Under the pieces are notes generated by a model. It did no database searches. It was not told the origin of the DNA and was given only the letters and a program-made list of their open reading frames with translations. The position numbers and the translations under genes are program-made. A stretch of 64,000 nucleotides of DNA from Escherichia phage SpoonbillGilly: sequence record PP925828.1, one strand, 5' to 3'. Below are positions 9,257 to 62,543 of the stretch, piece by piece. How positions within the stretch are numbered: the first letter of the stretch is position 1; every line of letters starts with the position of its first letter.

Positions 9257-9285
9257 TTGCTTTCGAGCTAAAACTTATGTATAAT
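9257..9285 (+). promoter_or_regulatory. T5-type early promoter (TTGCTT-17-TATAAT) with conserved leader TTTATAAATTTGAGAGGAG
   Basis: -35 TTGCTT 9257-9262, -10 TATAAT 9280-9285; leader matches the recurring motif seen at 16138-16160. Confidence 0.7.
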
Positions 9286-9313
9286 TGATTTATAAATTTG
9301 AGAGGAGAAAGCT

Positions 9314-9595
9314 ATGAGCGAATTGCTTCCGAAAGTAGATGTTTCCCATCTTGGAGAGCCTAGTGAAGAACGTAAGGCTTTAGATTGGTTGGGCGGATTT
9401 GATTATCGTCGTGTTGTTGCAACATGGGATGATAAGAAAGTTAAGAAGTTTCGGGTACATTATGTAGGTAAAGACAAGTGGCTCTGGATTGATTATGAAG
9501 AATCGAAGGGGTCTACTAAGGCTGTGAAAATTTATCGTATGTATGGATATTATTATGCTCACTGTGATAAGAATGAATTTACAGTACAGAACTAA
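9314..9595 (+). CDS. Hypothetical protein (93 aa)
   Basis: First ORF after promoter, SD GAGGAG upstream. Confidence 0.6.
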   Translation: MSELLPKVDVSHLGEPSEERKALDWLGGFDYRRVVATWDDKKVKKFRVHYVGKDKWLWIDYEESKGSTKAVKIYRMYGYYYAHCDKNEFTVQN

Positions 9596-9604
9596 GGAAC
9601 AAGA

Positions 9605-9808
9605 ATGAAAAACGTAAAACATCTTAAATATCGCTTAATTTACAACGGACGTATGGAAACAGAAGATCTAGCTCAGCTAGCGATCAATTCAGATGAAGTT
9701 ACAGTTCGTGCTTTGTCCATCGAGAAGCTGCGTGCTTCTTACGAAAATCGTATTATGGAATTGGAGGAAAAACTTTATGGACTTCTTGAATCAGAATCTA
9801 AAAAGTAA
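9605..9808 (+). CDS. Hypothetical protein (67 aa)
   Basis: ORF with AAGGAA upstream; predicted helical/coiled. Confidence 0.5.
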   Translation: MKNVKHLKYRLIYNGRMETEDLAQLAINSDEVTVRALSIEKLRASYENRIMELEEKLYGLLESESKK

Positions 9809-9971
9809 TTTAGAAAATATGCTTATGGAGCAGTGGAATGCTGGGTATAATGCTGGAGTAGCTACCTGTATTGCTGGTTTGGATATGCTTATTAAGCAAG
9901 AGAAGGTTCGCCCAGAAGAAGCAATTCTGCTCCAAAATATCATCGAAGGATTCAAGCAAGGAATTGTATAA
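9777..9971 (+). CDS. Hypothetical protein (64 aa; ORF extends upstream to 9693)
   Basis: ATG 9777 preceded by GGAGG at 9763-9767; stop overlaps the Sir2-like start (TAATG). Confidence 0.45.
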   Translation: MDFLNQNLKSNLENMLMEQWNAGYNAGVATCIAGLDMLIKQEKVRPEEAILLQNIIEGFKQGIV

Positions 9972-58898: not shown

Positions 58899-60215
58899 TT
58901 ATTTCCCACGGGAAATTGAGTAAATTCCATAACGCAGTGCGTCACAAAGGTGAGAGTTTGCATCATGACGTGGTTTTTCACGTGATAATTTCTCTTCGCC
59001 TTCCTGGAAGTCCCACTTGTAGTTCGCTAGGGCGTGGATCAATGAGGTACATGAAGCATCTACGATGATCTTACCTTGCTGGAACAGTGCTTGCAGGCAT
59101 GCCAAACCATCTAGGACAGATTTCTTAGCAGGAGCAGAAGCGATTTCATGTTCATATGCTAAGTCCTGACGGAACTGAGCAGCAGCGGAGTCTACAAATA
59201 TACGATCAACATTATAACGATCTATGCAGTGCTGTATGTAGGCAGCATGTTGAGCGGTAGTCTTTTCAGCTTGCTGATATTCTTCCAGTACGTAATAAAC
59301 ATCTTCATCGTAGTGATATTTAATAGTGAGAACCGCTGTAGGGTCACGATAACCAACGTCGATACCAAGTAATGTTTCAAATGCTTCATCATCTTTAAAG
59401 AAGTGACGCATACCTTTAAGGTCTTTAACATGCTCAATAGCATTGAAGGTGTCAAAGATCTGACCTTCAAATACGGAGAAGTCAGCCTCATATTCTTGGC
59501 GGAAGTAGTTTTTACTAACAGTACGACGCGCTTCCTCGATATCGTTCAGGTCAGCACGTGGGTTATCACGATATGTACCGTGAATAGATACCCAGTTAGG
59601 TAGCGTTTCGTTAAATCCTTTCTCATAGAACTCTTTGAACCAGTTACCACCACGAGGTGTAGAGATAAATAGAGCCTTAGAGTTCGGCTTATCTAGAGTA
59701 GGACGTAACTGAATATCGAAAGCTGCACCACCAACGTCGGAAATCGCTGCTTCGTCAAAAATGATGAAGTCATATGAACGACCAACCGCGGAGTCAGCCT
59801 GCGCCGCGGAAGCCAGTTTAAAGAGTGAACCATTCGCTAATTCAATCTCTTTATCTTTGGCGTTCTCACGTTCAGTCTGTAATCCATACTTCTTAATAAG
59901 ACCACGAATCTGTGACCAACCAATGTTAGCCAGTGAGTAGTTAGGCGCAACTACCAGCACCTTCACATTGGGTTCCAGAAGTTTTAGGAACCCAAGTGTA
60001 TATGCGATGAATGACTTACCTACACGACGTGATACACATGCAGTCACGAAACGGTGTCTTGGGTCTTCCAATGCATTAATAATTGCAATCTGAGGGGCAT
60101 TAGGTGTAATCCCCTCTTGAGCTAGAATGCTAGAGACTGGCAGACGGAAAAATCGTTTGTCAATACCAAAGTCAATAACATCTGTGGTGTTAATATAGTC
60201 TCTAGAGACTTTCAT
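58899..60215 (-). CDS. Terminase large subunit
   Basis: 438 aa; P-loop-like CVSRRVGKSF, Walker B IIFDEAA, C-terminal RNase-H-like nuclease half. Confidence 0.9.
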   Translation of the reverse strand: MKVSRDYINTTDVIDFGIDKRFFRLPVSSILAQEGITPNAPQIAIINALEDPRHRFVTACVSRRVGKSFIAYTLGFLKLLEPNVKVLVVAPNYSLANIGWSQIRGLIKKYGLQTERENAKDKEIELANGSLFKLASAAQADSAVGRSYDFIIFDEAAISDVGGAAFDIQLRPTLDKPNSKALFISTPRGGNWFKEFYEKGFNETLPNWVSIHGTYRDNPRADLNDIEEARRTVSKNYFRQEYEADFSVFEGQIFDTFNAIEHVKDLKGMRHFFKDDEAFETLLGIDVGYRDPTAVLTIKYHYDEDVYYVLEEYQQAEKTTAQHAAYIQHCIDRYNVDRIFVDSAAAQFRQDLAYEHEIASAPAKKSVLDGLACLQALFQQGKIIVDASCTSLIHALANYKWDFQEGEEKLSREKPRHDANSHLCDALRYGIYSISRGK

Positions 60216-60697
60216 TATCTCTTACCTCCTCCTGCTAGAGCGGTAATAAGATTCATATAGTTTTCGTCACCACTTCCAGCAATAATATTATTCTGAATGT
60301 TAGTCTGGTTAGCTGGAGTACGGGCTGCTGCCTTCACTTTCTCCAGTTCTACCATCATTTTCATTTCTTCCATCTTCATCTTGTGCGCCTTCCAGAGAAT
60401 ATCCATGATATCCTGGTCAGAACCCATGCCAGTTTCTTCGAGTTCTTCCAACTTGCGCTTGATAACTTCATCAAGAACTCCGAATAAGCGGTCACGATTA
60501 CGGAAGCCACTTTCCATAAAGATATCGTTAAGATAGTTTTTAACTTCCCCACGATTCATTATATCACGGAATGCAATCTCGGACATCCCAAGACTACGGG
60601 CAGCGGCAGGAACATCACTACCACACTGTAAATAGGCTTCAATAACATCCATGCCTTCGGGAGACATGAGATCGGGAACTAATACATCATTTGCCAT
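60215..60697 (-). CDS. Putative terminase small subunit / DNA-binding protein
   Basis: 160 aa; directly upstream of terL with overlapping stop/start; HTH-like [17 protein letters not shown]. Confidence 0.55.
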
Positions 60698-60707
60698 ATA
60701 TCCTCCT

Positions 60708-62489
60708 TTAGGTTAGGCGTTGAACTGTTACACGTAGTCTTGGCAAGAAAACAGCTGCCGCTTCTGCAGCGTGAATGATAACACCCAACTCAACGTTGCC
60801 ATTACCAAGGTTTTTAATAGTATAAATATATCCGTTCCTACGGAAAGCAAACTCATCTGGCCTACTAGCCCAAGTTTGTGTATAACTATAGGAAGTTGTA
60901 CTGTGATAAGGTACTAGATATCCAGGTGGCAGAGTAAGAATCTGATGGAATACACCATCACCAGCTGTATAACTTTGTTGACGTCTACCTTGTACCTGCC
61001 AAGCGCTACCGCCGTAAGTACGCACAGGCATTCCAGCAGTATTAAGATTACCCATAATAACTTCAGTAGTTAATATAACGGTAGAGTGAGCATTAGGTAA
61101 TCCTAACCAAACAGTGGCCAAAGGTGTATAGAAGTCACCAGCACCAGGGTAGGAAGGAGTTATATCATCACCAACATAAGTACTTGCAACGTTGCCTGGA
61201 AATAACCTGAGGGGTACAGTACTAGGACTCCACACAGGTCCATGTTCATTACCGATGGAGTTGGTATTAGTATCTACATACCATTGTTTACCTACACCAA
61301 ATTTATATAGGCTAATTTGGGAAGCTGCACCCCCATAGTTAACGGGCGACCACAACCCACCATTACTAGAGCCGATAAATTCACATCGTGCAGTATTATC
61401 ACCAAAAACTCCGGTATACGCAGCGTTATTACCAACATACTCCATATCAGGGCGATAGCCTAAGTTTCCAAAGGCATTCTGGTTAATGAATTTATATCCT
61501 GTATTTGGTAAACTAACACCTTTAATAGTAAAGTTAGATGGAGATATTAGGATATCTGAACCGGTAAATGGATTACCAGAAACTCCCATACTACCATTAG
61601 AATAGCGCAGATTTAGCACATACCAAATAACCTTAGTTGGCGTAACGTTATACCAGTCCTGTACATATACCTTTCTAGCAGACTGAGCAGCCATATTAGA
61701 AGTAGAACCTCTACAAACATATATTTTTTCTGGGTATGCAGGAGATTGGTAAAGAACGTTTACGTTATCTGGTAGTACGCCTTTTTTACCTGCGAAGCCA
61801 CGAATATTAGAACTACAAACGTAAAACCAATCATGGCCTCTACCAGCAGAACCAATAGGCGCCTGCCAGTTAGGTTCCCAATAATCTGCGTTACCACCAT
61901 CTAAAGGAACAGTAGAGACACCAGTTGGAAAACCCATAAGACTCCAGGCTCTGGCAATGGCTTCACCAGCAGAAACACCACCAGGTCTAAAGATCTGGAA
62001 ACCAGAGGACTGTAGTAAACTGCCTCCAGAACCTTGCCGAGCAATAGATTCCTCATGACCAAGACCACCATTATAGATATAGGTACCATGAGCTAAACTA
62101 TCACCGATCGCAAAAGCAGATGTTACAGATAATTCAGCACCAGCACGTGGTGGGTCTTCAAAGAATGATAAGAACTGGCCAACCTGAGATTGAGTACCAT
62201 TGAGGAATCCTCTATGGGTACCATTAATCTCAATAGCAGTTAATATAACTCTACCCGGATCATTGGATTTAATATTTATAATATCCCAAGGCATCTGAGT
62301 AACAAAGTATCCATTACCTGCATTACCTAGAGCCGCTTCATAAGTCCCATCAACCAGGACGAAAGGCATATCTGAGTGAAAGATACTATTAGTATTTGGA
62401 GAGTAGTGTTCACCAGTATCACCACCATTAGCAGCGTTTAGCGATAATACAGTTTTACCATCACTAAATTTTCCTGCGAAAAAACTCAT
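60708..62489 (-). CDS. Receptor-binding protein (T5 pb5/Oad-like), diverged
   Basis: 593 aa; N-terminus MSFFAGKF... resembles what I recall of T5 pb5; divergent arrangement with llp. Confidence 0.75.
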
Positions 62490-62514
62490 ACAATCTCCTT
62501 CTTTAAAAATGTAT

Positions 62515-62543
62515 TTGCTTAGATCCCTCTATTTTGCTATAAT
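62515..62543 (+). promoter_or_regulatory. T5-type early promoter for llp (TTGCTT-17-TATAAT)
   Basis: -35 62515-62520, -10 62538-62543, leader ATATTTATAAATTAAACAGAGGAAC. Confidence 0.7.

Follow-up and report, generated by a model that had tools for sequence, protein, structure and literature searches.

T5-type early promoters with a conserved initial transcribed block in Escherichia phage SpoonbillGilly

We analysed a stretch of 64,000 nucleotides (nt) of Escherichia phage SpoonbillGilly (PP925828.1; "the window" in the following) for a family of promoters that share a sequence block downstream of the -10 hexamer. The family is that of the classic T5 early promoters, here rediscovered: it is real, functional and already known, and descriptions and a partial dissection of its shared sequence behind the -10 go back to the 1980s. 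With high confidence we take the sites to be T5-type early promoters of a Demerecviridae phage, read by the host sigma-70 RNA polymerase (RNAP), in which the downstream block forms the post-recruitment half. The upstream half (an A-tract around -43, a -35 hexamer TTGCTw, a spacer of 17-18 nt and TATAAT) would provide for very fast and very tight polymerase binding, so that initiation would be limited at promoter escape; the downstream block would fix the start site, and its A/U-rich and then purine-rich initial transcript would let the tightly bound polymerase clear the promoter efficiently. Where the start codon lies at +18 to +27, as in eight of 13 promoters, the purine run would double as the Shine-Dalgarno sequence (SD) of a short unstructured leader.

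An earlier note had listed nine sites (9257, 12569, 16109, 17141, 18358, 19724, 28240/28317 and 62515) as "at least eight" early promoters with a -35 close to TTGCTT, a perfect TATAAT and a common downstream element. All nine are present as described; the coordinates give the start of the -35 hexamer, and only 28240 denotes the -10 itself. Each site has TTGnnn, a spacer of 17-18 nt and TATAAT, the -35 being TTGCTT or, at single sites, TTGCAG, TTGCTA, TTGGCA or TTGTCA, and each carries a sequence resembling ATATTY-ATAAATT(T)GA(T)GAGAGG behind the TATAAT. The family is thus real, but its size was underestimated. About 40 promoters are annotated in the T5 record AY543070, each as a 75-nt feature; an alignment of the 30 that have the pattern in common gave a profile hidden Markov model that included no window sequence. 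This T5-only profile recovered 13 sites from the window at E ≤ 5e-7, the next match having E = 0.03. The four additional sites have their -10 at 23760 (+, DNA polymerase), 7067 (-, phoH), 3469 (-, nrdB) and 843 (-). The assignment to the early class holds as well, as the sites are orthologous, in position and in sequence, to promoters annotated in AY543070, where the counterparts of five are named P-N25, P-N26, P-K28a, P31A and P31B. All 13 promoters face the adjacent gene and are co-oriented with the early genes; none lies in the late structural block (34.4-62.5 kb). They are given below with their -35, -10, start site (+1), initial transcribed sequence (ITS) and profile E-value.

9243-9309 (+): promoter after nrdD; -35 TTGCTT 9257-9262, -10 TATAAT 9280-9285, predicted +1 9292, ITS ATAAATTTGAGAGGAGAA, ATG 9314; E 2.6e-7; orthologue of T5 promoter 55708-55782.
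12555-12621 (+): promoter upstream of the origin-binding-protein gene; -35 TTGCAG 12569, -10 12592, predicted +1 12604, ITS ATTGAATTGAGAGACATT, then a hairpin at +9..+47; E 4.7e-11; orthologue of T5 promoter 58999-59073.
16095-16161 (+): PN25 orthologue upstream of D2; -35 TTGCTT 16109, -10 16132, +1 16144, ITS ATAAATTTGAGAGAGGAG, ATG 16169; E 2e-12.
17127-17193 (+): PN26 orthologue upstream of D3; -35 TTGCTT 17141, -10 17164, predicted +1 17176, ITS AUAGUUUGAAAGAACUAU, which pairs with itself in a stem of 7 base pairs, ATG 17228; E 5e-11.
18344-18410 (+): promoter upstream of a small open reading frame (ORF) and ligA; -35 TTGCTT 18358, -10 18381, predicted +1 18393, ITS ATAAATTGATGAGAGGAT, ATG 18416; E 2.8e-11; orthologue of T5 promoter 65284-65358.
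19710-19776 (+): PK28a orthologue upstream of ligB; -35 TTGCTA 19724, -10 19747, predicted +1 19759, ITS ATAAATTGATAAGGAAGA, ATG 19783; E 6e-14.
23722-23789 (+): Ppol orthologue (additional site); -35 TTGCCG 23736, spacer of 18 nt, -10 23760, predicted +1 23772, ITS GTAAGTTAGAGAAGAAAC, polymerase start 23827; E 9e-11; matches T5 promoter 70987-71061.
28203-28269 (+): P31A orthologue; -35 TTGGCA 28217, -10 28240, predicted +1 28252, ITS ATAAATTTGAGAGAGAAA, then a hairpin at 28270-28297; E 1.2e-12.
28303-28370 (+): P31B orthologue; -35 TTGTCA 28317, spacer of 18 nt, -10 28341, predicted +1 28353, ITS ATAAATTGATGAGAGACA, ATG 28374; E 2.6e-9.
62501-62567 (+): promoter of a gene for an llp-like lipoprotein; -35 TTGCTT 62515, -10 62538, predicted +1 62550, ITS ATAAATTAAACAGAGGAA, ATG 62573; E 6e-14; orthologue of T5 promoter 110349-110423.
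7038-7104 (-): promoter upstream of phoH (additional site); -35 TTGCTT 7090-7085, -10 7067-7062, predicted +1 7055, ITS GTAAGTTGATAAACAAGA, ORF start 6997; E 4e-12; orthologue of T5 promoter 53638-53712.
3440-3506 (-): promoter upstream of nrdB (additional site); -35 TTGCTA 3492-3487, -10 3469-3464, predicted +1 about 3457, ITS GAAATAGTGAGAAAGAGG with the purine run kept and ATAAATT absent, ATG 3432; E 1.3e-8; orthologue of T5 promoter 50061-50135.
813-880 (-): promoter (additional site); -35 TTGCTT 866-861, -10 843-838, discriminator of 7 nt, predicted +1 about 830, ITS ATAAATTGGAGACACTTA, ATG 813; E 4.9e-7.

The association between the promoter core and the downstream block was examined in the window in two ways. 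The composite pattern TATAATATWYAYATAAATTKR, which joins a perfect -10 to the downstream consensus, was found 10 times when up to three mismatches were allowed, against 0.16 expected, and none of 100 shuffles reached 10 matches. To avoid circularity, all 80 perfect TATAAT hexamers were classed by their upstream sequence only: of those with a TTG 16-18 nt upstream, 11/20 have TA[AG][AGT]TT 6-9 nt downstream, as opposed to 0/60 for the others (Fisher p = 1.6e-8). These two results rule out chance or low-complexity A/T-richness as an explanation. The downstream 11-mer on its own is not enriched in the window (15 occurrences against 18.6 expected), which rules it out as an independent repeated element, and 8 of its 15 copies sit directly behind a promoter -10; the element therefore exists only in promoter context.

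The shared part had been described as an initial-transcribed/5' untranslated element that runs into the SD, and it does consist of the discriminator followed by an initial transcribed sequence leading into the SD. All 13 promoters have TTGnnn and TATAAT, with a spacer of 17 nt in 11 and of 18 nt in two; an A follows directly after TATAAT in 12 and occupies the predicted +1 in 10. The start site falls on the A of CATAAATT, seven bases past the hexamer, since TATAATAGATTCAT represents -12 to +2 of N25 according to Klimuk et al. 2020 (PMC7472727). Counted from there, the block comprises: i) an A/T-rich discriminator ATATTY (-6..-1); ii) the start site with the first transcribed bases, A(+1)TAAATT(T)GA; and iii) a purine run resembling GAGAGG, at about +9..+18. 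Directly 5' of the -35 (around -43) we found an A-tract with consensus AAAAtT that is UP-like (0.4-1.0 bit/nt) and weak in the promoters at 9257 (TTTTATTTTAT) and 843. The information content is 1.6 bit/nt for the -10 hexamer, 1.1-1.5 for the -35 hexamer, 0.35-0.44 for the spacer, about 0.75 for the discriminator, 0.8-0.95 for +1..+9, about 0.48 for +10..+18 and about 0.05 beyond +19, values that are somewhat inflated, or circular, in that the sets were picked by a profile that includes the block; the upstream-only classification of TATAAT serves as the unbiased check on this. A TATAAA, which matches the -10 at five of six positions and misses the final T, lies at -1..+5 in 5/13 window and 13/32 T5 promoters; in sigma-70-dependent promoter-proximal pausing of the lambda PR' type, it is a -10-like hexamer in the initially transcribed region that recaptures sigma.

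The block was then followed through related phages. Of 45 loci encoding relatives of D2 that were taken from IMG/VR, 28 close T5-like loci were compared. Among their PN25 orthologues, variation affects 5/6 positions of the -35 and 8/17 of the spacer, 0/12 of -12..-1 and 2/18 of +1..+18, the latter two stemming from the expansion of an AG unit; the corresponding figures for the PN26 orthologues are 1/6, 7/17, 0/12 and 0/18. The window site at 16109 differs from the T5 PN25 core in a few bases and is identical to it over +1..+18. Further away, the T5-trained profile found eight sites in Klebsiella phage JIPh_Kp127 (Sugarlandvirus, polymerase 77% identical at the amino acid level) and four in Vibrio phage Rocket24 (Thalassavirus, 57%; e.g. 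TATAATAATCTCATAAATTGAAAAAGAGGAG), and Proteus phage Stubb (Novosibvirus) and Providencia phage PR1 (Priunavirus) carry the block variant ATTTATATTRAAT. No ATAAATT was found behind the promoters of relatives with a D2 of at most 42% identity (IMG/VR loci L035-L050). Strong TTGACA/TATAAT promoters followed by purine-rich leaders do occur in some of these relatives. The block is therefore confined to the Demerecviridae proper. The existence of the block, its extent and its conservation, like the orthology to mapped T5 promoters, are direct observations. Since the spacer is poorly and the block after the -10 well conserved, the data support the view that the block is probably kept by selection rather than by shared ancestry or copying, and the invariance of -12..+18 across genera shows strong selection on the natural transcribed sequence. 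Such selection fits the view in the literature that this sequence is tuned for escape.

In common expression vectors (pQE), PN25 goes by the name of "T5 promoter"; the family represents the natural context of this much-used biotechnology promoter and of a classic model of promoter escape. The T5 early promoters are reportedly the subject of Gentz & Bujard 1985 (J Bacteriol 164:70). Element by element, the window family has the architecture of the T5 early promoters (PN25, PN26, PK28a, P31A/B, PD/E33, PH207; AY543070), and the genes that flank its members are the same as at the T5 promoters; nothing of substance differs, and the differences are of detail, such as the absence from the window of a match to the PK28b-like TTGACA promoter. 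The same logo was reported for the T5-like phage AKFV33, with 32 promoters, TTGCTw, TATAATA, a spacing of 17-18 nt, AAAAATT at -43 and a "+1 region (TAAATT)" (Niu et al. 2012, PMC3326045); there the downstream A/T-richness was read as DNA curvature or complex stability, and the purine run and the overlap with the SD are not mentioned.

The earlier note had offered several alternative roles for the shared part, among them control of promoter escape, and had chosen none; its interpretation is supported overall. An escape role has been demonstrated in the literature for the transcribed region (+3 to +20) of N25, that is, for PN25 only. RNAP binding to N25 is extremely fast and tight, and the rate-limiting step is escape (Hsu & Han 2025, PMC12464699). 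Replacement of its +3..+20 by the antiDSR sequence lowered full-length RNA to one tenth and raised both the amount and the length of the abortive products (Kammerer et al. 1986, EMBO J 5:2995, as cited in PMC12464699; see also PMC5961368). With a non-template ITS rich in purines, the post-translocated state and escape are favoured (PMC12464699), and purine content has been linked to yield (Heyduk & Heyduk 2018, PMC5961368). The sequence that was swapped in the N25 studies (ATAAATTTGAGAGAGGAG...) is the conserved +1..+20 of the window family; those studies dealt with one promoter, on plasmids or in vitro, whereas the present analysis measured conservation across the family and across genera. 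No description of the latter was met in the accessible literature, and it may be contained in Gentz & Bujard 1985. The start site and the approximately 10-fold escape effect are literature values for PN25, which, to judge from sequence identity and conservation, would extend to the other 12 members; a literature search for RNA-seq mapping of T5 transcription starts gave nothing relevant.

Besides the partial circularity of the information content, several points weigh against the escape reading. The control of escape was demonstrated for PN25 only; three members (3469, 7067 and 23760) depart from ATAAATT; and N25, although first in vitro, is surpassed in vivo by T7 A1 and lambda PL (PMC12464699). 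In addition, 11/13 window promoters (e.g. 16151-16152 and 18399-18400), 20/32 T5 promoters and 8/12 promoters of the Klebsiella and Vibrio phages have a T-G step at +7/+8 or +8/+9. This step is similar to the YG motif, by which escape is slowed in the contexts of lambda PR, lacUV5 and deoB, most strongly at +5 to +7 (Heyduk & Heyduk 2018, PMC5961368), so that the block does not seem to be simply optimised for maximal escape.

The block could alternatively be a class label, an early-specific signal made up mainly of discriminator and start region and addressed by a phage factor (for example D5, or gpT5.026 in its complex with the RNAP beta subunit) that turns early transcription down when late transcription starts. 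We consider this possible, though on balance unlikely as the main function; it can coexist with the escape reading. A phage-encoded regulator with the shared element as its target had been suggested by the earlier note, and such a proposal exists as a published, unproven hypothesis: all known early T5 promoters carry the ATATT discriminator and late ones differ, which was put forward as the basis for a differential effect of the RNAP-binding gpT5.026 (Klimuk et al. 2020, PMC7472727). This protein lowers the binding of RNAP to a -12/+2 N25 non-template oligonucleotide 8-fold, and in a gene 026 mutant early transcripts go up and late transcripts go down (PMC7472727). The same study established Ppol as early by primer extension and found early kinetics for Ppol and P15A in T5; its discriminator consensus and its early/late contrast are those of the window, and it covers -5..+2 only. 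In line with a class label, the late-region PG25 orthologue at 45783 (-), which reads TATAATATTGTTATTAAGAGGAG, and the late-region PJ5 orthologue, which has TATACT as its -10, both lack the block; in the T5 record a part in early shutoff is assigned to D5, and the conserved T-G step leaves room for a regulatory checkpoint. Against these stand the facts that no factor has been demonstrated to read +1..+18, that the link between ATATT and gpT5.026 is a hypothesis of its authors, and that the nrdD promoter (7283-7311, TTGACA type) drives an early-region gene without the block.

A second alternative is that the block is mainly an mRNA element, i.e. an unstructured A/U-rich leader with a strong SD for translation and/or a 5' end that sets stability, its role in transcription being secondary. 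In 8/13 window promoters the start codon lies at +18 to +27, and there the purine run is the SD, 5-10 nt upstream; the short leaders have weak or no predicted structure; and the conserved 5' bases of long-leader members frequently form part of a 5'-terminal or 5'-proximal stem. We nevertheless regard this reading as rather improbable. The other five promoters have a long leader or no nearby ORF and yet are still purine-rich over +9..+20; across 57 promoters the purine fraction of this interval is 0.73 for those with a long leader or no ORF and 0.83 for those with a short leader, against a background of about 0.5. The T5 promoters in front of tRNA or stable-RNA genes (P13b, P16-17) also retain GAGGAG or GAGAG, and therefore the run is not only an SD. 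The block as such is kept where there is no ORF at the right distance (P31A at 28240, 12592, PN26, Ppol, and T5 P13b, P16-17 and P15b), the discriminator (-6..-1) is conserved though it is not transcribed, and the ITS swap in PN25, as far as it is described in PMC12464699, alters the RNA yield in purified in-vitro transcription.

A more speculative, and in our view doubtful, proposal sees more in the block than a start that favours escape. The T-G step, a motif that elsewhere makes the initiating polymerase pause, and the early-specific discriminator would fit a dedicated early-class checkpoint, which phage factors such as gpT5.026 or D5 could read for shut-off, and the long-leader and non-coding transcripts would have evolved protective 5' stems. 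The reason to consider it is the invariance of -12 to +18 across genera that infect Escherichia, Salmonella, Klebsiella, Proteus, Providencia and Vibrio, which keeps the question alive of how T5 shuts off its early genes. The family as such involves no new kind of element.

Least of all do we believe that the similarity is a by-product of history, with terminator-promoter cassettes copied or homogenised by recombination and a functionless downstream part: many members do follow directly on a terminator-like hairpin with a T-run, and the promoter at 3469 marks the edge of the insertion or deletion of hegH (present in T5, absent from the window), but this view is already disfavoured by the data, as simple copying would have kept the -35/-10 spacer, which is poorly conserved among paralogues between flanks that are both conserved, as orthologues keep the block invariant while -35 and spacer change, and as the block persists in genera with a polymerase of only 57% identity at the protein level.

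The leaders were also inspected for structure. Rfam gave no match at gathering thresholds anywhere in the window, and folding showed no shared structure among nine leaders or among all 57 family transcripts; a structured RNA leader, whether known or new (riboswitch, attenuator or other Rfam family), is thereby ruled out. The short leaders fold weakly and unlike each other, with energies comparable to those of shuffled sequences. For the long-leader or non-coding transcripts of the family, the predictions show pairing of the conserved first bases with a complement further downstream, so as to form a stem from +1, and the short-leader mRNAs start single-stranded. Predicted stems of this kind in the window are located at 17176-17193, 23772-23810 and 7055-7007, with a 5'-proximal one at 12612-12650; the PN26 transcript has a stem of 7 base pairs with a GAAA loop, the Ppol transcript pairs GUAAGU with ACUUAC, and T5 P16-17 (locus L002, about 31574-31543, -) has a perfect stem of 13 base pairs that begins at +1. 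By these structure predictions, the 5'-terminal stems of the long-leader transcripts may protect the 5' end.

Two hairpins downstream of family promoters stand out. Between the -10 at 12592 and the ORF of 970 amino acids for the origin-binding protein, some 365 nt (12604-12970, +) are without any ORF of at least 45 amino acids. This stretch might serve as a long leader, yield a non-coding RNA or represent an origin region that is read from an early promoter. It opens with a hairpin at +9..+47 (-12.3 kcal/mol, z -3.4), and its remainder is partly conserved among T5-like phages. The orthologue in Klebsiella phage JIPh_Kp127 (locus L003, about 8717-8766) has a hairpin of other sequence at the same place (-15.9 kcal/mol), and this orthologue is the one that supports the hairpin; covariation support from Proteus, Providencia and Sugarland phages was rejected, as the blastn matches were paralogous promoters elsewhere that lack it. 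The other hairpin (28270-28297, +; GUUUCGGAUU...AGUCCGAAGC; -14 kcal/mol, z -4.2) is stable and separates the tandem promoters P31A (-10 at 28240) and P31B (-10 at 28341). No T-run comes after it; it is conserved in T5 and also, with a shorter loop, in the Klebsiella phages (L003, about 24536-24555, and L053).

Repeated early promoters beside hairpins are also said to be known from T4-type phages as promoter-early stem-loop (PeSL) cassettes, reportedly described by Arbiol et al. 2010 in Genome Biol Evol. Like the T5-type units they are scattered in early regions and can mark the edges of insertions; their sequences are different and the T5-type units show a single such edge, so that we speak of a resemblance and not of membership. 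The edge in question is the nrdB promoter (3432-3506, -, compared with T5 in locus L002, 39537-40136): in T5, hegH, a homing endonuclease gene, lies between promoter and nrdB, and the window lacks it. The sequence diverges from T5 right after the -10/discriminator, and the leader differs from that of T5 because hegH is absent.

Two further promoters in the early region have other downstream sequences. The nrdD promoter (7283-7340, +; core 7283-7311) combines the consensus TTGACA-17-TATAAT with AGTAGTCTTAGTTAGAGAAGGAGGG and has no ATAAATT; it represents a second promoter type in the early region, and T5 PK28b and P12 look similar. The promoter at 7203-7245 (-) has the family-like A-tract, TTGCCA and TATAAT, followed by the G+C-rich CACGCGCCCGTGTACGCG in place of the A/T-rich block. 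It is the orthologue of the annotated T5 promoter 53776-53850, a Klebsiella phage has a similar G+C-rich stretch (L003, about 4633-4560, -), and no RNA structure was predicted for this stretch.

For annotation, the family profile shows in any T5-like genome where early transcription units begin (13 in the 64 kb analysed here) and separates early from late promoters. Over 15500-19900 the window shares 98.8% identity with Escherichia phage GreteKellenberger, and this region has matches in 461 records of T5-like phages. The gene order is that of the T5 early region (nrdB/nrdA, phoH, nrdD, origin-binding protein, D2, D3, ligA/ligB, with D5, helicase, primase, polymerase, D10-D15 and dut following in T5-like order), after which comes the late structural block on the minus strand. 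On the basis of this gene order and these matches, the window is identified as approximately the 47-111 kb part of a T5-like (Demerecviridae) genome.

At the far end of the window, the gene behind the 62515 promoter is the counterpart of T5 llp and encodes a lipoprotein that carries a lipobox (MKKLLAIVVAAVVLTGC); in T5, too, a promoter is annotated at this place. This early gene (62573-62839, lipobox LTGC) encodes 88 amino acids, compared with 77 for T5 llp, and adjoins the homologue of the receptor-binding protein (pb5/oad position, in the region 60708-62839), which has 593 amino acids compared with 640 in T5. These size differences suggest that the phage may use a receptor different from that of T5, with a matching receptor-blocking lipoprotein.

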